This document shows, piece after piece, positions 1 through 11,702 of a stretch of 64,000 bases of DNA. The notes beneath the pieces were generated by a model that ran no database searches, was not told the origin of the DNA, and worked only from the letters and a program-made list of their open reading frames with translations. Numbering within the stretch: the stretch's first letter is position 1; each line of letters begins with the position of its first letter. This DNA is from Escherichia phage vB_EcoM-101112UKE3-1: sequence record MZ234013.1, one strand, 5' to 3'. A program made the position numbers and the translations under genes.

Positions 1-1
1 A

Positions 2-730
2 GAATTCGCCGAAGTAGCTGAATCACGTACTGCATCTAATGGCATCGCCAATAAATCTTTAAAGGGAACCATTTCTGAAAAAGAAGCACAATGCATGAAG
101 TTTCAGGTCTGGGATTATGTACCGTTGGTAGAAATATACGGTCTTCCTGCATTTCGTTTGAAATATGATGTACGTTTTTCTAAACTAGAACAAATGACAT
201 CAGGCTATGATAAAGTAATTTTAATTGAAAACCAGGTAGTAAATAACCTAGACGAAGCCAAGGTAATTTATAAAAAGTATATTGACCAAGGTCTTGAAGG
301 TATTATTCTCAAAAATATCGATGGATTATGGGAAAATGCTCGTTCAAAAAATCTCTATAAATTTAAAGAAGTAATTGATGTTGATTTAAAAATTGTAGGA
401 ATTTATCCTCACCGTAAAGACCCTACTAAAGCAGGTGGATTTATTCTTGAGTCAGAGTGTGGAAAAATTAAAGTAAATGCTGGTTCAGGCTTAAAAGATA
501 AAGCCGGTGTAAAATCGCATGAACTTGACCGTACTCGCATTATGGAAAACCAAAATTATTATATTGGAAAAATTCTAGAGTGCGAATGCAACGGTTGGTT
601 AAAATCTGATGGCCGCACTGATTACGTTAAATTATTTCTTCCGATTGCGATTCGTTTGCGTGAAGATAAAACTAAAGCTAATACATTCGAGGATGTATTT
701 GGTGATTTTCATGAGGTAACTGGTTTATGA
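2..730 (+). CDS. 30: ATP-dependent DNA ligase, C-terminal part (5' end lies upstream of window)
   Basis: Frame is open from window start with no upstream stop; C-terminus ...FEDVFGDFHEVTGL and overall sequence match my recollection of T4 ligase; synteny with alt downstream. Confidence 0.8.
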   Translation, partial: EFAEVAESRTASNGIANKSLKGTISEKEAQCMKFQVWDYVPLVEIYGLPAFRLKYDVRFSKLEQMTSGYDKVILIENQVVNNLDEAKVIYKKYIDQGLEGIILKNIDGLWENARSKNLYKFKEVIDVDLKIVGIYPHRKDPTKAGGFILESECGKIKVNAGSGLKDKAGVKSHELDRTRIMENQNYYIGKILECECNGWLKSDGRTDYVKLFLPIAIRLREDKTKANTFEDVFGDFHEVTGL

Positions 731-915
731 AAGCTTACTTAGAAACAATTGTCATTGCTCAAAAAGAAGGTGGAGATGTTTCTACTTCTGTATCACAAGT
801 CATTCTCGAATTTGTAGATGCATACGCTTATAATAAATTCACAGAAACATTTGATGCCTATGAAAAAGGTCCAAAGTTTGAAATATACCGTACTCTCTTA
901 CCAATAGATTATTAA
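727..915 (+). CDS. small hypothetical protein (62 aa)
   Basis: ATGA start/stop overlap with ligase gene; followed by a hairpin terminator. Confidence 0.5.
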   Translation: MKAYLETIVIAQKEGGDVSTSVSQVILEFVDAYAYNKFTETFDAYEKGPKFEIYRTLLPIDY

Positions 916-939
916 AGGCCTTCGGGCCTTTAATTTTAT
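916..939 (+). terminator. rho-independent terminator-like hairpin (aaaggccttcgggccttt + T-run)
   Basis: GC stem with TTCG loop followed by T-rich tract, read directly. Confidence 0.5.
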
Positions 940-944
940 AAATA
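937..944 (+). promoter_or_regulatory. T4-type late promoter TATAAATA upstream of alt
   Basis: Exact TATAAATA about 20 bp upstream of the alt start codon. Confidence 0.55.
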
Positions 945-964
945 GAATAAACACTAGAGAGGAT

Positions 965-3022
965 ATGATGGAACTCATTACAGAATTATTTGACGAAGAT
1001 ACTACTCTTCCGATTACAAACTTAAATCCAAAGAAGAAAATACCGCAAATTTTTTCAGTTCATGTTGATGATGCAATTGAACAACCAGGCTTTCGTTTAT
1101 GTACCTATACATCTGGAGGTGATACTAATCGCGATTTAAAAATGGGCGATAAAATGATGCATATTGTTCCTTTTACATTAACTGCTAAAGGTTCAATTGC
1201 TAAATTAAAAGGTCTTGGTCCAAGCCCAATTAATTATATCAATTCAGTTTTTACTGTTGCAATGCAAACAATGCGTCAGTATAAAATTGATGCCTGTATG
1301 CTTCGTATTCTTAAGTCTAAAACCGCTGGTCAAGCTCGACAAATTCAAGTTATTGCTGATAGACTTATCCGTAGTCGTTCAGGTGGCAGATACGTCCTTC
1401 TTAAGGAACTCTGGGATTACGATAAAAAGTATGCATATATTCTTATACATCGCAAAAATGTATCACTAGAAGACATTCCGGGAGTTCCGGAAATTAGTAC
1501 TGAGCTCTTTACTAAAGTTGAATCGAAGGTCGGTGATGTTTATATCAATAAAGATACTGGAGCTCAAGTAACTAAAAATGAGGCAATTGCAGCATCTATT
1601 GCGCAAGAAAATGATAAACGTTCTGACCAAGCTGTAATCGTTAAAGTTAAAATTTCCCGTAGAGCAATTGCGCAAAGTCAATCATTGGAATCTTCTAGAT
1701 TTGAAACGCCGATGTTTCAAAAATTTGAGGCTTCAGCAGCAGAATTAAATAAACCTGCTGACGCTCCTTTAATTTCTGACGCTAATGAATTAACTGTTAT
1801 TTCTACTTCAGGATTTGCATTAGAGAATGCTCTTAGTAGTGTTACAGCTGGAATGGCATTCAGAGAAGCTTCTATAATTCCTGAAGATAAAGAATCTGAT
1901 GTTAATACAGAAATAAAAAATAAAGCTTTAGAAAGATTACGAAAAGAATCTATTACTTCAATAAAAACTTTAGAAACTATTGCTTCTATAGTTGATGATA
2001 CTTTAGAAAAATATAAAGGTGCTTGGTTAGAAAGAAACATTAACAAGCATTCGCATTTAAATCAAGATGCTGCGAATGAGTTAGTACAAAATTCTTGGAA
2101 TGCAATAAAAACAAAGATTATTCGAAGAGAATTGCGTGGATATGCTCTTACCGCTGGATGGTCACTACATCCTATAGTCGAAAATAAAGATTCATCTAAA
2201 TACACACCGGCACAAAAACGCGGAATTCGTGAATACGTAAGTTCAGGATATGTAGACATAAATAACGCTCTTTTGGGATTATATAATCCAGATGAGCGTA
2301 CAAGTATTTTGACAGCATCTGATATAGAAAAAGCTATTGATAATTTAGATTCTGCCTTTAAAAATGGTGAACGATTACCAAAAGGTATTACTTTGTATCG
2401 TTCACAACGAATGTTACCTTCAATATATGAAGCACTGGTAAAAAATCGAGTTTTTTATTTTAGAAATTTTGTGTCAACATCATTATATCCAAACATTTTT
2501 GGTACTTGGATGACTGATTCAGCTGTTGGTGTTTTACCAGATGAAAAGCGTTTAAGTGTTTCTATTGATAAAACTGATGAAGGACTAGTAAATTCTAGCG
2601 ATAATTTAGTTGGAATTGGATGGGTTATTACTGGGGCTGATAAAGTCAATGTTGTTTTACCAGGTGGAAGTTTAGCACCTTCAAATGAAATGGAAGTCAT
2701 TTTGCCACGTGGATTAATGGTCAAAGTTAATAAAATAACCGATGCATCTTACAATGATGGAACAGTTAAAACTAACAACAAGCTTATTCAAGCTGAAGTT
2801 ATGACCACAGAAGAACTCACCGAATCGGTAATTTATGACGGTGACCGTCTAATGGAAACCGGCGAAGTAGTTACAATGACAGGTGATATTGAAGTAGAAG
2901 ACAGAGTTGACTTTGCATCATTTGTTTCATCAAATGTTAAACAGAAAGTAGAATCATCTCTTGGAATTATTGCGTCTTGTATAGATATTGCAAACATGCC
3001 TTACAAGTTCGTTCAAGGATAA
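965..3022 (+). CDS. alt: Alt ADP-ribosyltransferase (packaged, injected protein), copy 1
   Basis: 685 aa; N-terminal MELITELFDE capsid-targeting/gp21-cleavage-type leader; ART R-S-E type motifs LYRSQ, FVSTSL, EMEVILPRG; position next to gene 30 as in T4. Confidence 0.85.
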   Translation: MMELITELFDEDTTLPITNLNPKKKIPQIFSVHVDDAIEQPGFRLCTYTSGGDTNRDLKMGDKMMHIVPFTLTAKGSIAKLKGLGPSPINYINSVFTVAMQTMRQYKIDACMLRILKSKTAGQARQIQVIADRLIRSRSGGRYVLLKELWDYDKKYAYILIHRKNVSLEDIPGVPEISTELFTKVESKVGDVYINKDTGAQVTKNEAIAASIAQENDKRSDQAVIVKVKISRRAIAQSQSLESSRFETPMFQKFEASAAELNKPADAPLISDANELTVISTSGFALENALSSVTAGMAFREASIIPEDKESDVNTEIKNKALERLRKESITSIKTLETIASIVDDTLEKYKGAWLERNINKHSHLNQDAANELVQNSWNAIKTKIIRRELRGYALTAGWSLHPIVENKDSSKYTPAQKRGIREYVSSGYVDINNALLGLYNPDERTSILTASDIEKAIDNLDSAFKNGERLPKGITLYRSQRMLPSIYEALVKNRVFYFRNFVSTSLYPNIFGTWMTDSAVGVLPDEKRLSVSIDKTDEGLVNSSDNLVGIGWVITGADKVNVVLPGGSLAPSNEMEVILPRGLMVKVNKITDASYNDGTVKTNNKLIQAEVMTTEELTESVIYDGDRLMETGEVVTMTGDIEVEDRVDFASFVSSNVKQKVESSLGIIASCIDIANMPYKFVQG

Positions 3023-3025
3023 ATC

Positions 3026-5083
3026 ATGGAACTTATTACAGAATTATTTGACGGCGCTTCGGCGCCGGTTGTTAACTTAAATCCTAAGCATAAAATACCA
3101 CAAATTTTTGCTATTCAAGCCGGCGAAGAAAGCGTGCTTCCTGGATTTAGATTTTGTACATACACCTCTGGTGGTGATACGAATAAAAACGTTAAGCCAG
3201 GCGATAAAATGATGCATATCGTAATGATAGGTGTTAATGAGAAACTATCATTAGTTAAGCTTAAAAACTTGGGTGGAAATCCAATTGGTGTCATTAATGC
3301 CGTTTTTGATACTGCTCTTCAAACAATGAAACAGTATAAAATCGACGCATGCCTATTCCGCGTACTAAAAAGTAAAACAAATGGCGCAGCTCGTCAAATG
3401 CAAGTTATTGCTGACCGTTTAGTACGTACTAAAGGAGCAGGTCGATATGTTCTTTTAAAGGAAATCTGGGACTATGATAAGAAATATGCATATATTATGG
3501 TTTACCGTAAAAATGCCAATTTAGAAGACATTCCAGGTGTACCTCCTATTTCAACTGAGTTATTCACAAAAGTTGAATCAAAGGTCGGTGATGTTTATGT
3601 AGACGTTAAAACAGGAAATGCTGTTCCTAAAGCTGTCGCTGTTGCTGCTTCTATTGCTTTAGAAAATGATAAGCGCACGGACCAAGCTGTTATTCAGAAA
3701 ACTAAAATCAGTCGTCGATTAGCAGCACAAGCTCAATATTCTACTGTTGATGCTTCACTTCAGGGTGATAGCTTTGCTGCCAAGAAATATCAAGAGTTTG
3801 AATCTAAAGTTCCGGTATATAAAGCAGAAGGTCCGATGAACTCTGGCGTTATCCAGATTGGTTCAAACTTCAGCAAAGGAGCTATCGGTGGTATGAGAAG
3901 TGCTTCTCGTTTTAAATCTAACGATTATGAACTAGAAAGCTTCCGAAATCATATTGCATTGGCCCATGCACGTTTACGTGATCCATCTATCAAGTTGCAG
4001 AGCGATATAACATATCAAGGTTCTCAAGAATATTTAAAGAATAAAGAATTCTTTGATTATAAAACTGATAAAATTTTAAGCGATCTTGCTGACATTAATA
4101 TTTCTAATAGCTTTGATGTTATTAAGAAAATTATCAATGATTTGGTTAAAGGTTCTAAAGCCACGCCAGATGAAAAGACAGCTATTATTCAATTTGTAAT
4201 GAATGGCATTTATAAATTGATTAATGAATCTGCTGCCCAGGCATATGAATACGCAAGCACCGAAGTAGCTCCAAAAGGACTGACTCAGGCTGAATCTGAT
4301 GTAATTGAAGATTATTGTGCAGATTCATATGTTGAAATGAACTCGTTCCTTTTGGGTAAACCAGATTCTACCCGTGAAGAATACATGGAACGAGCTATTA
4401 AGCACATCGAGACGTTAGATTCTGCCTTTGCCAAAGGATCAGTTCTTCCTCCAGGAACTACACTTTACCGTGGGCAAGAAGTTACCTTTAAAACTTTGCG
4501 TCATAACATTGAAAATAAAATGTTCTATTTCAAGAACTTCGTATCCACATCGCTTAAACCAAATATCTTCGGTGAGCATGGTAAAAACTATATGGCTCTA
4601 GATGATTCTGGCGCAGTATTTTCTGGCGAAGGAGAAGGTTCCGTTGATACAGAAGATTTGATGCATATGGGTAGTCATTCTACATATGCTAATGAAGATG
4701 CTGAAACTAGCGTGGGTATGGTAATTAAAGGAGCTGAGCGAATCAAAGTTATCGTTCCAGGTCATTTATCAGGATTTCCATCAGAAGCTGAAGTTATTCT
4801 ACCACGTGGAATTTTACTGAAGATTAATAAAGTAAGTACGTACTTTATGAAAGAAACTGCTTATAACAAGTATCTAATCGAAGGTACAATCGTTCCTCCT
4901 TCTGAACAATTAGAAGAATCAGTATATGATGGAGACCATCTAATGGAAACTGGTGAAGTTCGTCCAATGGCTGGATTTAATCAATTCCTTGTAGAAGAAT
5001 CAAAAGAAGAGGAAAATGAAGTTTCTCAAATCTTGGCTTCTTTGGTTAACATCAACGGAATGTCTAAAAAGTTCAAAATGTAG
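3026..5083 (+). CDS. Alt-family ADP-ribosyltransferase paralog, copy 2
   Basis: 685 aa; same N-terminal leader (MELITELFDG...NLNPKHKIPQIF); conserved LYRGQ, FVSTSL, EAEVILPRG; central region diverged from copy 1. Confidence 0.8.
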   Translation: MELITELFDGASAPVVNLNPKHKIPQIFAIQAGEESVLPGFRFCTYTSGGDTNKNVKPGDKMMHIVMIGVNEKLSLVKLKNLGGNPIGVINAVFDTALQTMKQYKIDACLFRVLKSKTNGAARQMQVIADRLVRTKGAGRYVLLKEIWDYDKKYAYIMVYRKNANLEDIPGVPPISTELFTKVESKVGDVYVDVKTGNAVPKAVAVAASIALENDKRTDQAVIQKTKISRRLAAQAQYSTVDASLQGDSFAAKKYQEFESKVPVYKAEGPMNSGVIQIGSNFSKGAIGGMRSASRFKSNDYELESFRNHIALAHARLRDPSIKLQSDITYQGSQEYLKNKEFFDYKTDKILSDLADINISNSFDVIKKIINDLVKGSKATPDEKTAIIQFVMNGIYKLINESAAQAYEYASTEVAPKGLTQAESDVIEDYCADSYVEMNSFLLGKPDSTREEYMERAIKHIETLDSAFAKGSVLPPGTTLYRGQEVTFKTLRHNIENKMFYFKNFVSTSLKPNIFGEHGKNYMALDDSGAVFSGEGEGSVDTEDLMHMGSHSTYANEDAETSVGMVIKGAERIKVIVPGHLSGFPSEAEVILPRGILLKINKVSTYFMKETAYNKYLIEGTIVPPSEQLEESVYDGDHLMETGEVRPMAGFNQFLVEESKEEENEVSQILASLVNINGMSKKFKM

Positions 5084-5112
5084 TTTACAAGTCCCTCGTG
5101 TTGTGTTATAGT
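5083..5112 (+). promoter_or_regulatory. early-type promoter (GTTTAC -35, 18 bp spacer, TGtTATAGT extended -10)
   Basis: Sigma70-like hexamers with T4 early GTTTAC box upstream of ORF 5144. Confidence 0.45.
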
Positions 5113-5143
5113 AGTCTTACTGACATAACATGAGGAACACAAA

Positions 5144-5434
5144 ATGAAATCTTCTTTGCGCTTTTTAGGTCAAGAACTTGTAGTTGAAGGAGTTATTCCT
5201 GCTGATAATGCTTTTAATGAAGCAGTTTACGATGAATTTATCAAAATTTTTGGAACAGATAAAAAGTTCGGAATTTTTCCTTCTGAAAATTTTTCAAAGC
5301 CAGAACAGACTGAAAGTATTTTCCAAGGTGTAGTAACAGGTAAATTTGAGTCAGAAGCTCCGGTAAAAATTGAAGTTTATATTGAAGACAGTTTAGTTGC
5401 TTCAGTTTCTGCTTTCATTTCATTCCGTAAATAA
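5144..5434 (+). CDS. hypothetical protein (96 aa)
   Basis: ORF with AGGA-containing RBS region (catgaggaacacaaaATG); between alt and gene 54. Confidence 0.55.
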   Translation: MKSSLRFLGQELVVEGVIPADNAFNEAVYDEFIKIFGTDKKFGIFPSENFSKPEQTESIFQGVVTGKFESEAPVKIEVYIEDSLVASVSAFISFRK

Positions 5435-5440
5435 AAATAT

Positions 5441-5462
5441 GGGGACCAAAAGGTCCCCATTG
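5441..5462. terminator. bidirectional terminator hairpin (ggggaccaaaaggtcccc) between convergent genes
   Basis: Perfect 7-bp GC stem flanked by A/T runs on both sides; lies between + ORF end and gene 54 end. Confidence 0.6.
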
Positions 5463-6428
5463 TTATATTGCTCCTAATATTTTACTCTGCGAATTGACAA
5501 TTCCTGTCATAGTATTAATATTTGAAATGCTTCCTGTAGTTCCCCCTAATCTACTAAGTCGTGAAAGCGAATTAGATAGTCCAGTAACACCTCCACTATT
5601 TCCGAGAACGCTTTGAATACCATTTATAGTAGCAGATTCAAGCCATTCAAGGGCAGCTTGTCTATCAACTGCTCCAGCCTGCATCACTCTATACGCAAAA
5701 GTAACATCAAATGTAGTTATTTGGTTATCTCCATCATATGATAACTCAGGAGCGCTTACGGACACTGGAATGCATCCAGTGAACATCACCGCAGTATGTG
5801 GTAATCCATTGCGAGAATGAAGATTAACCTGAATATCTGCCTCGACATCTTGCGGCAAAGCACGCAATCCAGTTACTGGGTCTTGAACAGCGTTAACCCA
5901 GTCTTGCATTGCACGATAGTTACAAGCTTCTGAATCCATTCTGAATGAAATAACCAAAGGGTCTAATTCTCTCCCAGTTATACGAATATTAGGAGAATTA
6001 TAGTTCCAGTCAGTTTCATAGGATAATCTATTCTCTGGCATTTTTACAGAGTATATCATCAATCCAGATGAGTTATATGCCACGTTAAAGAAGTCAATTA
6101 AATATGTACCAACTGTAAATGAGCCTAATAAACTTTGAACTGTACGTTGACTCATGGCACCAATAAGATATTTACTAACCCCTGATTTTCTTATCAGTTT
6201 TTGTGTGCCAGCTGTAATTAGCGTAGTAATTCCCTGATTAATATCGCCTTGAGTTAATCCTAACCAATCTGAATTTAGGCCCAAGTTATTATAAGAAAAG
6301 TTGCTAATTGAACTTATCAACGAAGAGCTTTTAGTTGATGGAGTTGTAGCAAAAACACAGCTGAACATATTATTACGTTGGAAATCTGCGTTTATTGCTT
6401 GATTATTAAATTCCTCTAAAGAATACAT
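5463..6428 (-). CDS. 54: baseplate tail tube initiator gp54
   Basis: 321 aa; T4 gene order 54-48-29 and size match. Confidence 0.8.
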   Translation of the reverse strand: MYSLEEFNNQAINADFQRNNMFSCVFATTPSTKSSSLISSISNFSYNNLGLNSDWLGLTQGDINQGITTLITAGTQKLIRKSGVSKYLIGAMSQRTVQSLLGSFTVGTYLIDFFNVAYNSSGLMIYSVKMPENRLSYETDWNYNSPNIRITGRELDPLVISFRMDSEACNYRAMQDWVNAVQDPVTGLRALPQDVEADIQVNLHSRNGLPHTAVMFTGCIPVSVSAPELSYDGDNQITTFDVTFAYRVMQAGAVDRQAALEWLESATINGIQSVLGNSGGVTGLSNSLSRLSRLGGTTGSISNINTMTGIVNSQSKILGAI

Positions 6429-7522
6429 TAAAAAGTCCCCGCATATAAAGAAGCACGGTTTAACGTGATAATTTCTCTCATAGTAATCTCGAGAGTAAAT
6501 GTACTAGGGAGATTTGGAGCAATAGCTAATCCGTTAAAGTTACCATTAGGTGTTTTATCAAATCTGATACTCTGGATTTGACATGGACCGAATATTTCCG
6601 TTTTTCCATCAAACTTAGATGTTGCACCAAAGTTTTTCACCATCCAAATTGTCGGGTTTGAAACTACAAGAACGTTAGTTAAACTCGATGTCATTTTCTC
6701 AAATAACGTCTTATTTTTAACTGCATCTTCTGGAGTTAACGGCTCAATAAAAGTAGAACGGTACCACTCATCTAAATATCCTTTTATTTCAGCAGCATAT
6801 TGAGATTTACCAGTTTCACCGTAAGAAAAATAGTTAAAATACTGATAGATATTAATAATAGCCATTAAATCTTCTGTTGAGCGCGGAGTCAAATCCCAAG
6901 TGAACACTTTAGTTCTATTTTCAGCACCGCCGTACATGCTTCTGGCTGTCGTATAAATCTGTTCATTATTATCAGCCATTATACCTTGTGTTATACTTTC
7001 CAGCGCTCCAAATACTGCGGTTGAAGCCATATTGCTTAGCACACCAGTAGCAGTACCTCCACCTTTTGTAATAAGACTATCTTGAACATCATTAAATCTA
7101 TGTGATGACGTATCGACGTCAGATTTAGATCTAGGTAAAAGAATATTTGCAACAGGAACTTTACTTATTGTTCCTGAATTATTATCTGATATTAGTCCAT
7201 TTGATAGTTTTGATACTGTATTACTGATAGTGTTTCTGGCTGTACGTAAAATACTCGAAGATGAAGAAGAGTAGTTAGATCTCATCGTTCTAAGACTTCC
7301 AGAATCCCTAGATGACATATTGTATGCAGTAAATAATAATCCATTCTTATATAGATCTGTTACCTGGAAGTCCCCTGTAGTGTCATTACCACTAGCACGC
7401 CCAGTTGGAAACTGGGCTGTGTATGTTTTAGTTCCTACTTCTGATTTAGTACTCTGTCCGGCTGAAATTGTTTCACCGGACTTTTTAATTAAATCAGCAG
7501 TTATTTCTTTAACAATTGCCAT
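6428..7522 (-). CDS. 48: baseplate tail tube cap gp48
   Basis: 364 aa, same as T4 gp48; synteny. Confidence 0.8.
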   Translation of the reverse strand: MAIVKEITADLIKKSGETISAGQSTKSEVGTKTYTAQFPTGRASGNDTTGDFQVTDLYKNGLLFTAYNMSSRDSGSLRTMRSNYSSSSSSILRTARNTISNTVSKLSNGLISDNNSGTISKVPVANILLPRSKSDVDTSSHRFNDVQDSLITKGGGTATGVLSNMASTAVFGALESITQGIMADNNEQIYTTARSMYGGAENRTKVFTWDLTPRSTEDLMAIINIYQYFNYFSYGETGKSQYAAEIKGYLDEWYRSTFIEPLTPEDAVKNKTLFEKMTSSLTNVLVVSNPTIWMVKNFGATSKFDGKTEIFGPCQIQSIRFDKTPNGNFNGLAIAPNLPSTFTLEITMREIITLNRASLYAGTF

Positions 7523-7530
7523 ATTATTCC

Positions 7531-9303
7531 TTAATTAACTCCCGTCGCACCAAATACACCAGGAGCAGTTGTGCTTGTGACAGGTGTCATATTATGAACG
7601 ACAGTATTTTTCTTAATAACATTATTAGTATTATTGATTGAAGGAGATGCTTGTTGAACAGGAGCTTGTTGTGCTTTGTTCTTTTCAATCACCTGGACCT
7701 GTTTTGCTTCTGGTGATTTAGCAGAAGTTTCAGGTTTTGCTTCAGGTTGATTTTTCTTGAGCTCTTGATAAGTGGCATCAATTTTAGCAAATCTAGAAGC
7801 AAGTTCTTTTTTAACTGCTGGTGAATTATTTAAATCCGGATCATTCATTCGTTTTTTAAGGTCTTCATGAGCAGCTTCAATTGATTTAACTGTCGAGTCT
7901 TTGCTCATATCAGCTGAATCAGCGTATTTTTCAAAACGAATCATCGCAGCACGAGCTTCATTAGCTTTCATTAAAGCATTTTTTCTTTCTTCCGGTGAAA
8001 GTTGTTTTAATTTTTCTTCTTCTGCTGCACGTTCTTCGTCAGTAGTCAATGCTTCTTTATTATCTACACCACGAATCCAGTTAGATGCACGAGTTTTCCA
8101 GTTCGCAATTTTGTCTAATCCTTTTGCTATTGGGCCAAGATCATCATTCATTCGTTTATCTTGATAATTTGCTACTTTTTCTTGGTCTTCTTTATTAAGA
8201 GATGCTCCAGTAGAATTTTGGAAATTTTCTAATGCTCTTCCTTCTACTTCATCAGCAGTATCCTTCATGCCAGGAATGACTCGAAGAATTGCTGCAGATA
8301 ATTTAGCCATACCTAATTGAATAAGCTCTCCTAAATTATAAAGAACACTTCCAAGCCCTTCAACAATAGCTACTGTTAATCCGCCCCAATCTCCAGCTTC
8401 CCAGAACTTTTTAATTTCATCAATAGATTCAAAGATGCTTTGTAATAAAGGGCCCCAAGTTCCTGTTTCGCTTGAGAAAGTTTTAAAATCAGTGCTAAAT
8501 AAATCCCAGGCTTTTGAAAATTTATCTGACCAGTATTTAAAATGAACCATCAGCAGGTCTATTCCAATAACAACAGCCATTATCAATGCAACCATTTTAG
8601 CAGCTTCAATAGCAGCACTGACGGTATACTTAAATAGCATGCTAGATATTTTATCAGTAATTGAAATAGATTTCTTAAATCCGAAATCAACTGTCTTTGT
8701 TAATTTATCTAAAGCTTGAGATAATTTTAAGTTAAATGCGTCTCTTTTTTGCTTCTCTTCTGGAGACTCTTGTTTTGGTTCAATTGGCTGAGGAGTAGGG
8801 AAAAAATCAGCATCAGGATCATTATTAACTGCTTCAGGAGCCGGTAATAAAGGACCCACAGATTCAGCTGTATCATCCTCGACGACTTTAACAGGAATAG
8901 CATTTTCGACTACTGCTAAACTCGTTCCAGTCTGTTGAATTCCAGCTGTTTGAATTTTTTGTTCTAATAAACTCGTTAATTTATCTAATTTGCTTCCGAG
9001 TGATTCGCCTATTTCTTTATTGATATTATTGCCAATTTCAACAGTCTCGGCAATTAACTCAGAACCGGCAGTAGTATCACTCACTGCGCTTTCAACGTTA
9101 TCAATTGCTCCAACTATTTCATTTGATTTTTCTTCAACAGTCTGAGCTATTAATTCAGAGGCAGCTTGAGCATCATCTAATTTTGTAGAAATGTCATTAA
9201 GACCAGATAAAGTATTAGAAGCGGATTTAGCCGCTTCCTGTGTTGGTTTATTATCTGAAATAACTTTTCTACGCATCGTTTGCATTTCTTGTGGCTTTTT
9301 CAT
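7531..9303 (-). CDS. 29: baseplate hub / tail length tape-measure protein gp29
   Basis: 590 aa as T4 gp29; Ala/Glu/Lys-rich extended protein; synteny. Confidence 0.8.
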   Translation of the reverse strand: MKKPQEMQTMRRKVISDNKPTQEAAKSASNTLSGLNDISTKLDDAQAASELIAQTVEEKSNEIVGAIDNVESAVSDTTAGSELIAETVEIGNNINKEIGESLGSKLDKLTSLLEQKIQTAGIQQTGTSLAVVENAIPVKVVEDDTAESVGPLLPAPEAVNNDPDADFFPTPQPIEPKQESPEEKQKRDAFNLKLSQALDKLTKTVDFGFKKSISITDKISSMLFKYTVSAAIEAAKMVALIMAVVIGIDLLMVHFKYWSDKFSKAWDLFSTDFKTFSSETGTWGPLLQSIFESIDEIKKFWEAGDWGGLTVAIVEGLGSVLYNLGELIQLGMAKLSAAILRVIPGMKDTADEVEGRALENFQNSTGASLNKEDQEKVANYQDKRMNDDLGPIAKGLDKIANWKTRASNWIRGVDNKEALTTDEERAAEEEKLKQLSPEERKNALMKANEARAAMIRFEKYADSADMSKDSTVKSIEAAHEDLKKRMNDPDLNNSPAVKKELASRFAKIDATYQELKKNQPEAKPETSAKSPEAKQVQVIEKNKAQQAPVQQASPSINNTNNVIKKNTVVHNMTPVTSTTAPGVFGATGVN

Positions 9304-9833
9304 TCAAATAATCCAATAATATTGCCAATTCCGGTTATTGGACCATTAGGGCCAGGAATTGCTAAAGTTGTAGAAATATCATTTGCCCATTTTAAAACAA
9401 ATGCTGGCATCTCAAGAAAATTAATTTCTTTAACTTCATCATTGACCTTAAGCAAGCATTTGGATAACATATCGCTTACAGTTAAAAATTGTTCAAATTT
9501 TCCAGGAGGTCTAAAATAAAATGTATTTCCTTGGTATTGAAATTCCAATCTTTGACATACATAAACGTCATTAATATCATAAGTATAACCATCTATTTCT
9601 TTACGAGATTTAATCTTTCCATTAAATTCCAATAAATGAATAGAAACGAAATCAACTTCTGCCGGTGATAAATTCGGACAAATAGAATCAATAAGAAGTT
9701 TTAAATTTTCATCAGGACCTTTAACATCTTTTAAAATGTTATAATGTTTAAGACCCATCTTAGGAATAGAAACTTCTTTATTACTTATTGGAAGAACTAC
9801 TTTCTTCAGTGGTAGTATCAGATTTAAATTCAT
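9300..9833 (-). CDS. 28: baseplate hub distal subunit gp28
   Basis: 177 aa as T4 gp28; synteny; start overlaps gp27 3' end. Confidence 0.75.
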
Positions 9834-10953
9834 TTTTAACCTTAACTGGGTCTATTGTTTCCAGTTTCGTCGCATTAGTGAACATATATAGATGAGTTAC
9901 TGAATTATTATTTGATAATTCATGGATAACTTCATCAACGTAAAATTCTGTTTTAAATTGGTTTTTACTATCATTAAAAATAATTTTAACACCAGGAGTC
10001 AAGTTAAAATTACCGACAGTAGAACATTTAGCATAGCCATCATATTGCGCCATAGTTTGAAGACGAATAGCTTCTTCATAGCCATTTCTATAAGTCATTT
10101 CAGAATAAGCACCTGACCTTGACACTACAATAGAGTTTTCACCCTTTCCTGTAGTAATCATTGGCAGTGAAGAATCTAAAAACGAATGAGCATAGATAGT
10201 AGCATTTTTCATTGGATCACGTTTATGCGGGTTTGATTTAGTCAACCAAACAAAATCATATGCTAATGGATATTTCAATTCTTGGACGAATTGACCTATT
10301 AAAGTTGGCTCACCTACAATCATTGGATATGGTTCTTGATTTATCATCATATCATAGTCCATCATGTTAACTCCCATGATGTCTTGCCATACAAATACGA
10401 ACTTATCGCTTCCTACCGCTAGAGCAACTTCTCTTACATAGGACAAATAATTTTCAAATGTACTAGTCCATGGAATATCAGGAACATAAGCATTTATAGC
10501 ATTTATTGCTGGAGTTAATAATGTGCGGTCTTGATAAATGACACCAAGCATTTCTTTTATAGATTCACCTGCATCAGGGAAAAATGGTCTACCAAATTTA
10601 AGATTTTCTATAGAATGAATAGTTCCCAATTCAATAGCAATGATGTTATCGCCTTTTGAATCTACTGACACGGAAAAATGTTTGCATCCATAAATTCGTG
10701 TTTTAACATTATTAATATCGTTTGCATTAGCTACAGAAATTTGAATTATTTCATTTCCATCCATTTTTGTATGAATGTTTTTAGAATCATAAAATTGTAG
10801 CATTCCTTCATTTCGACCATAAAGAGAGTCACGCATAGTTAATGTGGTAATAGTAGCAGCTAATTCAACAAATCTATTATTACTCCAAGCGTCATAACTC
10901 TCAAATAATTTAACGCTGAGATTTGGATATCCAGGACGTTGTAACATACTCAT
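9781..10953 (-). CDS. 27: baseplate hub subunit gp27
   Basis: 390 aa (T4 391); synteny 51-27-28-29. Confidence 0.8.
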
Positions 10954-11702
10954 TGATGTTTATCCTTCTCAATCAGTTTTAATACGAATCCGCGTTCGGC
11001 AGGAATCATTTTCATTATTGAATTTAAGCTATAATTACTTTTTACAAGCGTGTGATTAATTTGATAAAAAGTAAATATCTCATCTGGATTAACTAATAGC
11101 TTAAACACATCTACTATATCAGTGTATTTTTTAATGTACTTATCACAACACGACATGTGCAATGTTAAATTAATAGGATTCATTGCATCGAGAATTTTTT
11201 CTAATGTTTCTATCTCGATGGCGTCAACTAGTTCTATTTGACTGGACTCGCTAATTTCCTTCCAATCATACCATATTTCATCTACTTGAACAGAATGAAT
11301 ATTTTCAGTAATCATCTTTGCTTTATTTTCATAAAACTCAGAAGGAAACTTTAATTTAATTTTAACATTAGCTACATCAAAAACAGGTTCCTTTAATTCT
11401 TTTTGATATATTTCAAATGGAACTGTCTTTTCTTTTTTACATTTTGGACATACAAATGTGACCGGTACTTTAGTTTTACCTATTGAACCTACAAATACCT
11501 GCAAAAATATAAATGGTTGCCAAGTCTTTGGATAGTCTCCAAAATAATCAGCAATTAAATCAGCAATTACTTCTTTTTGTTCTTGTGGTGACCGATGTTC
11601 TATATCGTTTCGAACTAACAAAAAATCTCGATAATCTTCTACCGTAAATGGTTTAAAACGATGAACACCATCTGGTAATTTACAACGAATAATGTTTGCC
11701 AT
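10950..11702 (-). CDS. 51: baseplate hub assembly catalyst gp51
   Basis: 250 aa (T4 249); divergent from gene 26. Confidence 0.75.

Follow-up and report, generated by a model that had tools for sequence, protein, structure and literature searches.

Two full-length alt genes in tandem

The DNA analysed here, a stretch of 64,000 nucleotides (nt) from Escherichia phage vB_EcoM-101112UKE3-1 (MZ234013.1; hereafter the window), carries on its + strand two open reading frames (ORFs), listed with 685 amino acids (aa) each, at 965..3022 (copy A) and 3026..5083 (copy B), separated by only 3 nt (ATC, 3023-3025). Both encode members of the family of T4 Alt, a NAD+-arginine ADP-ribosyltransferase (ART) carried in the phage head (about 40 copies), ejected with the DNA and targeting RNA polymerase alpha among other proteins. 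The pair lies between gene 30/alt.1 and alt.-3/gene 54, with a late promoter in front, as is characteristic of an Alt-family locus. This is how the alt locus of T2/JB75-like Tequatrovirus phages is normally built, in the order 30, alt.1, alt, a second full-length alt paralogue and alt.-3, followed by 54/48/29, and positions 700-5500 are 99.7% identical to Escherichia phage vB_EcoM_JB75.

Copy A is the orthologue of T4 Alt (NP_049811), with which it shares 98% of its residues (670/684 identical; 2 aa are inserted near the C-terminus), the flanking genes, the position of the late promoter and the cleavage motifs ITE-6 and LTE-619. The initial annotation had described two 685-aa ORFs; the common strand and the 3-nt spacing stand, but copy A most likely starts at its second ATG (968) and comprises 684 aa (968..3022), because T4 and its relatives annotate that start and because the spacing of the Shine-Dalgarno box GAGG (959-962) fits it, being 5 nt from ATG 968 and only 2 nt from ATG 965. 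Numbered from ATG 968, and with all codons checked, ITE-6 lies at 977-985, R478 at 2399-2401, S503-T-S505 at 2474-2482, E574 at 2687-2689, E576 at 2693-2695 and LTE-619 at 2816-2824. It matches PF03496 (E 7e-35) and phrog_802 (E 8e-262).

Copy B (3026..5083, 685 aa), named alt.-2, alt_2 or "Alt-like" in other records, is the full-length second paralogue (PF03496, E 5e-20; phrog_802, E 2.5e-256). Both proteins score above the PF03496 gathering cut-off of 23.4 bits, and PHROG 802, described as "Alt-like RNA polymerase ADP-ribosyltransferase", takes in both, in agreement with the initial annotation of two full-length Alt-family genes. On the + strand, residues 1-238 of copy B (3026..3739) comprise a leader ending in ITE-6 (codons 3035-3043) and an alpha/beta N-terminal domain (PF26846, Tevenvirinae_ADPRT), presumed to be the head-targeting part. 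Then follow a hypervariable central region, residues 239-412 (3740..4261), predicted to be all-helical with a predicted local distance difference test (pLDDT) of about 72-91, and the ART domain, residues 413-625 (4262..4900), with a low-confidence insert at residues 517-554. The catalytic codons lie at 4469-4471 (R482), 4544-4552 (S507-T-S509), 4784-4786 (E587) and 4790-4792 (E589). Residues 629-685 (4910..5080) start with an L-E-E motif (4910-4918), after which a presumed C-terminal propeptide opens with the conserved SVYDGDHLMETGEV.

An AlphaFold2 model of copy B, built from a 16-sequence alignment (mean pLDDT 75; predicted template modelling score, pTM, 0.70), is consistent with this division: residues 1-11 are disordered, 15-215 form the alpha/beta domain, 219-470 are all-helical, 480-622 form the ART core, 630-663 are again disordered and 660-672 form a final helix. 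The N-terminal domain (residues 1-238) was modelled with a pLDDT of 85 and a pTM of 0.83, and the ART fold is likewise modelled with confidence. For the 99%-identical cluster P0001, as for A-type clusters, a precomputed PF26846 assignment exists. A profile of the N-terminal domain matched Alt-like proteins only, in 73 clusters among 1.84 billion clustered proteins. No NCBIfam model matches either copy, and a sequence search of the PDB returned a marginal CdtA match for copy A (E 0.009), no match for copy B and no Alt structure.

The two proteins are related far beyond chance (BLASTP: 41% identity over 717 columns, E 3e-158), but unevenly so. By region, identity is 67% in the N-terminal part (aa 1-238), 15% in the centre, 37% in the ART domain and 42% in the C-terminal tail; in windows of 30 columns it amounts to 53-80% over aa 1-238, 0-20% over the central aa ~240-420, 37-57% around the catalytic motifs and about 27-43% at the C-terminus. 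The strong divergence of the centre noticed in the initial annotation is thus borne out. Its statement on the extreme C-termini was correct in that these differ; they are not simply unrelated tails, however, since they open with a conserved SV(I)YDGDxLMETGEV downstream of the conserved L-x-E site. The catalytic residues are kept in both copies, again as proposed: the LYR-S/G-Q motif holds R478 in A and R482 in B, the FVSTS motif holds S503-T-S505 and S507-T-S509, and the E-M/A-E-VILPRG motif holds E574/E576 and E587/E589. In the 16-sequence family alignment, R482, S507, S509, E587 and E589 of copy B are invariant.

When A and B are aligned with T4 ModA and ModB, which are likewise ARTs of the R-S-E clade, the arginine, the first serine and both glutamates are invariant. 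The Mod proteins are nevertheless of another build: they are early proteins of about 200 aa that have neither the N-terminal domain nor the helical centre nor the protease sites, and there are no reports of their being packaged. At 684 and 685 aa, with ART domains only 14-17% identical to those of ModB/ModA, copies A and B do not belong to this single-domain type. The R-S-E toxins of the C3/VIP2/iota type (Vis 4xzj, C3bot2 1r45, VIP2 1qs1) and polymorphic toxins show a sequence identity of only 17-27%, and these bacterial toxins are delivered by secretion or through a binary B component, in contrast to the head packaging and ejection of Alt. The resemblance to MuF-fused or polyvalent head-packaged effectors (Iyer et al. 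2017/2022) is functional only, as Pfam found neither MuF (PF04233) nor a second effector domain in copy A or B. Compared with T4 Alt itself, copy B agrees in length, domain order, catalytic residues and the cleavage motifs at homologous positions; it differs in sequence (41% overall, 15% in the centre, 37% in the ART domain), in its longer ART insert and in its C-terminal tail.

The two-gene arrangement is usual in the genus, is annotated as such and was already known. In a megablast search of 50,697 phage records, copy B matched 497 records, of which 401 span 80% or more of the gene with an identity of 94-100%, including T2, RB6, RB7, RB68, wV7, AR1, HY01, fPS-65, phiD1 and SHFML-11; the T2 protein is 98.8% identical. 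The genes of T2 (XUQ83099), wV7 (YP_007004936), RB7 (RB7_192), RB32 (RB32ORF194c), fPS-65 (g194c), SHFML-11 and 6phi13 are copy B at the same place, with proteins 98-100% identical, and between these annotated second Alt-like genes and copy B we see no difference of substance. Many records label both members of the pair Alt or Alt-like, often as "Alt-like RNA polymerase ADP-ribosyltransferase (x2)"; elsewhere copy B is called "alt.-2" (RB7), "alt_2" (one record) or "hypothetical protein". Nolan et al. (2006) described alt paralogues in RB49, 44RR and T4 (alt.-1, alt.-2), with a full-length duplicate in 44RR (PMC1524935), and a 2026 paper reported two paralogous Alt-like proteins of 43% identity in the Tequatrovirus phages 6phi13 and SHFML-11, proposing functional divergence and an expanded target range for the pair (PMC13600099). 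The initial annotation could not tell whether a second full-length copy is standard in T4 itself; on its own terms, any novelty of the arrangement is refuted: T2, RB7, wV7, HY01, fPS-65, SHFML-11 and about 400 records already carry it annotated. What the present analysis adds is modest, namely the mechanism of the T4 deletion, the C-terminal cleavage motif in copy B, two allele classes of alt, and the genus-specific N-terminal domain with its exchangeable cassette.

Deletion of copy B in T4 and module exchange in the Alt family

The gene order of T4 (NC_000866) is 30, alt.1, alt, alt.-1, alt.-2, alt.-3, 54, and the record describes alt.-1/alt.-2 as "an old duplication of the first part of gene alt". 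Aligned with the window, the T4 locus is colinear through 3373 and again from 5064. Both ends fall on a 9-nt direct repeat, CTAAAAAGT, present on the + strand of the window at 3365..3373 (left copy) and 5064..5072 (right copy). T4 has a single CTAAAAAGT at the junction (T4 locus extract 5105-5113) where the window has two, so that 1,699 nt were lost by deletion between short direct repeats; a further 1-nt deletion splits the remaining 348 nt of copy B into alt.-1 and alt.-2. These first 348 nt are 97% identical between the T4 remnant and copy B. The PHROGs of alt.-1 and alt.-2 (23015 and 15247) match residues 1-56 and 62-117 of copy B, with E-values of 2e-40 and 3e-38 against B and 1e-21 and 2e-19 against A. 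T4 alt.-1 and alt.-2 (NP_049810, NP_049809) are therefore the same gene as copy B, the frameshifted and truncated remnant of a full-length copy. T4 is the derived state, and its record note has the direction of the event backwards. The exact T4 junction occurs in 90 phage records. This single event is thus common to about one fifth of the relatives sequenced, whereas copy B is retained in about four fifths of them.

Other states of the locus occur as well. Escherichia phage sutha (locus extract 3317-5520) has one T2-type alt and, behind it, an ORF of 38 aa whose only match is to the last 128 nt of copy B; this is an independent loss. Single A/B hybrid genes were found in metagenomic data, in a Logan contig of SRR24155011 (4001-6055), in a second contig (4001-6061) and as protein P0003; their first ~50, ~190 or ~222 residues are A-type and the remainder is B-type. 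In SRR24155011 no alt gene other than the hybrid lies between alt.1 and alt.-3, and one hybrid lies in a 65-kb contig in the order ligase, alt.1, hybrid, alt.-3, 54. These genes suggest unequal crossing-over between the tandem copies. Collapse of the two genes during assembly of the Logan contigs is an unlikely origin, given that A and B have no long identical DNA tracts.

Where copy B is retained, its intact 685-codon frame is under strong purifying selection. Among seven alleles (the window, fPS-65, T2, RB7, wV7, HY01 and 11B_SA), the ratio of nonsynonymous to synonymous substitutions (dN/dS, Nei-Gojobori) was 0.018-0.055, with pairwise dS up to 0.27. Between A and B, dS is saturated in every region (at least 0.97). 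Given this saturation, and given that A-type and B-type lineages both occur in Dhakavirus, the duplication is old: copy B is an old, separate paralogue and not the product of a recent event. The picture of diverged duplicated effectors drawn in the initial annotation holds as to the variable centre, but it has to be amended on two points, the duplication being not recent and the divergence reaching beyond the centre into a catalytic domain that is only 37% identical.

Tandem alt paralogues between genes 30 and 54 are also found in other Tevenvirinae (Dhakavirus UP19 and PSD9; 44RR ORF187c/188c; RB49; Bp7 alt'), in arrays of one to three copies (two in UP19, three in PSD9) that differ from the Tequatrovirus pair in their genus-specific N-terminal domains. 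The N-terminal 238 residues group by genus: Dhakavirus copies are 61-67% identical to one another, and Tequatrovirus and Dhakavirus copies only 42-48%, whichever paralogue is compared. Such a genus-specific domain is expected of a part that fits the phage's own prohead core. The centre, the ART domain and the C-terminal tail group instead by paralogue type. By these three parts the last Dhakavirus copy is the orthologue of copy B, with 45-46% identity in the centre, 58% in the ART domain and 61-64% in the C-terminal tail; the centre of copy B is 45-46% identical to that of the third/second Dhakavirus copies (PSD9/UP19) and 15% to that of copy A. The N-terminal likeness within a genus reflects constraint or old conversion. 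A recent gene conversion between A and B in the window was considered and rejected, as their N-terminal DNA is only about 67-72% identical, with a dS of 1.56.

The alt gene itself (copy A) occurs in Tequatrovirus as two allele classes, a T4-type of 682-684 aa (T4, the window, fPS-65) and a T2-type of 697 aa (T2, RB7, wV7 and HY01, at 304-2397 of their locus extracts). They are 72% identical overall; at the nucleotide level, identity is 99% in the N domain and 96% in the C-tail, compared with only 54% for the centre and 70% for the ART domain. Conserved ends around a diverged centre and ART domain point to replacement of a cassette. The T2-type ART is 91% identical in nucleotides and 95% in protein (dS 0.44) to that of the second copy of Shigella phage PSD9, a Dhakavirus (locus extract 3916-5997), whereas the flanking N domain and C-tail have dS values above 2, which indicates a fairly recent exchange of the T2-type catalytic module between genera. 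Judged from these sequences, the centre and the ART domain behave as a cassette that is exchanged by recombination through the conserved ends, within as well as between genera. The Alt family is built like a polymorphic effector, with a conserved delivery part and a swappable cassette of centre and ART domain.

Some distant relatives of the N-terminal domain have no detectable Pfam ART, namely P0182 (1142 aa), P0183 (541 aa), P0180 (485 aa) and P0187 (347 aa). An in-house ART profile gave no match in P0183 and P0187 and only short partial matches in P0180 and P0182, and these proteins could carry other effector domains. Structural matches of the N-terminal fold (E 1e-8 to 1e-4) extend to proteins with zeta-toxin, deaminase or ParB domains.

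Proposed expression, processing and role of the second Alt

The late-promoter consensus of T4, TATAAATA, is found at 937..944 on the + strand, in front of both genes. It is the only + strand match within 1-11,700 and none lies between copy A and copy B; A and B probably share this one late promoter, since no other is present on the + strand in that interval. In the whole window, TATAAATA has 26 matches against 10.8 expected, and none of 100 shuffles reached 26. Most of these matches lie between 11.7 and 48 kb on the - strand, where late promoters of the T4 structural gene block are to be expected. The Shine-Dalgarno sequence of copy B, AAGGA (3015..3019, + strand, read from the sequence), lies 6 nt 5' of its ATG and overlaps the last codons of copy A; this overlap suggests that translation of B is coupled to that of A.

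Mass spectrometry of T4 Alt has shown that the prohead protease cuts at ITE-6 and LTE-619 and leaves a mature protein of 68.2 kDa (PMC5694885). Both motifs are present in copy A, for which residues 7-619 give a calculated mass of 68.1 kDa. In copy B, ITE-6 is likewise present and LEE-631, followed by SVYDGDHLMETGEV, stands at the position homologous to LTE-619; here residues 7-631 give a calculated 69.1 kDa. The shared leader seen in the initial annotation is thus present in both genes, with the very ITE-6 at which T4 Alt is cut (PMC5694885). Most of 73 family representatives start with a leader ending in L/I-x-E and continuing with (V/L)FD, which supports the view that the N-terminus would be a protease-removed targeting leader throughout the Alt family.

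Taken together, these observations are best explained, with a probability of roughly 0.8, by a standard locus with an intact old copy B, in which both copies would be expressed late, packaged, trimmed and ejected and would ADP-ribosylate differing substrates. Late transcription of both A and B would start from the one TATAAATA promoter at 937-944, B being translated by coupling to A. Each protein would enter the prohead core through its N-terminal part, that is, the leader ending in ITE-6 and the genus-specific alpha/beta domain, and the gp21 prohead protease would then trim each at ITE-6 and at the L-x-E near residue 620-630, to about 68 kDa (A) and 69 kDa (B). Both would be ejected together with the DNA. 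In the new host, each would mono-ADP-ribosylate arginines of host proteins with NAD+, its own helical centre and catalytic domain setting a separate substrate range. The change of target recognition between A and B that the initial annotation proposed might be understood in this sense; diverged injected effectors are a reasonable idea, and one that has been put forward in print before.

Several points weigh against this explanation. The shared late promoter is a consensus match only, and read-through from upstream early transcription may contribute. About one fifth of the relatives, T4 included, have no copy B, so that it is dispensable, at least on laboratory hosts. Its PF03496 score (72.1 bits) is lower than that of copy A (120.5 bits), and its catalytic domain contains a 35-residue insert of low model confidence. 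Literature searches returned neither biochemical data on copy B nor an experiment or proteome that shows it to be made, packaged, cleaved, ejected or active; the one virion proteome table found for a phage that carries B, that of fD1, is illegible at rows g190-g202 and gives no reading on it, and the paper on fPS-65 contains no proteomics.

Copy B might also be a redundant back-up or dosage copy of Alt, directed at the same targets (Arg265 of RNA polymerase alpha and other Alt substrates) and simply adding packaged enzyme. The architecture, catalytic residues, promoter and processing motifs are indeed alike in both copies, and T4 does well without B, but one would expect such a copy to be homogenised or to disappear, not to stay distinct for so long. 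Saturated dS, a centre that shares only 15% and an ART domain that shares only 37% of its residues with A, the separate orthologous groups that A-type and B-type genes form in two genera, and the tight purifying selection on B in its own right make redundancy unlikely. Still less probable, in our view, is that B is decaying or non-enzymatic, be it a structural protein of the head core, a filler protein or a pseudo-enzyme, and is heading for the T4 state. At least two independent losses (the 5' remnant of the T4-type and the 3' remnant of sutha), the merging of B with A in hybrid genes and its lower ART profile score would fit such a fate; it is difficult to reconcile with an ORF of 685 aa that is intact in every full-length example examined, with dN/dS of 0.018-0.055, with the presence of R482, S507-T-S509 and E587/E589, and with a confidently modelled ART fold.

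Since packaging of B is only inferred, the protein might instead stay in the producing cell and act there late, as ModA/ModB do early, or it might modify RNA or another non-protein substrate. ModB has shown through RNAylation that T4 ARTs take unexpected substrates (PMC9503650), and work on CmdTAC has shown that ARTs can target mRNA (PMC11618068). Against this, copy B keeps the ITE-6 leader and the full N-terminal domain, both absent from ModA and ModB, as well as the C-terminal L-x-E site and the conserved block that flanks it, and it lies behind a late promoter and beside baseplate genes, a context that the literature reads as pointing to packaging in the head (PMC5512222). We regard an unpackaged copy B as highly improbable, to the same degree as a decaying one.

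A packaged, trimmed and ejected copy B with substrates of its own thus remains the preferred explanation. A wider proposal, which we make tentatively and hold to be slightly less likely to be right than wrong, is that B would be a second capsid-packaged, injected ART with its own targets that was overlooked because T4 deleted it, that Alt proteins would be polymorphic injected effectors in which a genus-specific, head-targeting N-terminal domain and a cleavable C-terminal tail enclose the swapped cassette, and that the N-terminal fold may deliver non-ART effectors in other large myoviruses. The polymorphic-effector part of this proposal is put forward because the T2-type ART is so close to its Dhakavirus counterpart and because T4-type and T2-type alt are set apart by the cassette alone. 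A second alt gene is in itself ordinary, annotated as it is in hundreds of T4-type phage genomes, and injected ADP-ribosylation in T-even phages appears to be known mainly from T4, a natural deletion mutant for copy B. In matters of host takeover, defence escape and therapeutic Tequatrovirus isolates, the single Alt of T4 should not be assumed to be typical of the genus. Cassette-like exchange between conserved delivery ends offers a simple framework for choosing chimeras and for target profiling.

Flanking genes and signals

Upstream of the pair lie the 3' part of gene 30 (DNA ligase, 95-730) and alt.1 (727..915, + strand, 62 aa; Pfam PF24647, Phage_blade, E 2e-29), which stands between gene 30 and alt as it does in T4. 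Right behind alt.1, a terminator-like GC hairpin, AGGCC-TTCG-GGCCT, with a T-rich run was read from the sequence at 916..929 (+ strand); a consensus terminator scan did not pick it up, and fPS-65 annotates a terminator at the equivalent place. The last gene of the block is alt.-3 (5144..5434, + strand, 96 aa; DUF5498, PF17602, E 5e-64), at the same position as T4 alt.-3. Downstream of it, the convergent baseplate genes 54, 48 and 29 lie on the opposite strand, and between alt.-3 and gene 54 a bidirectional terminator hairpin (5439..5460) has a 9-bp stem with 6 GC pairs that can be read on both strands; fPS-65 has terminators annotated at the equivalent site. In T4, mutations that extend the C-terminus of alt.-3 allow escape from CmdTAC defence by blocking degradation of CmdA (PMC11618068). 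Here, alt.-3 has an early-type promoter match of its own directly behind copy B (TTTACA-17-TATAGT, 5084..5112, + strand), a sigma-70-like sequence that agrees in 10 of 12 positions and carries a TG extension, and at the equivalent place fPS-65 carries the annotation of a predicted early promoter.

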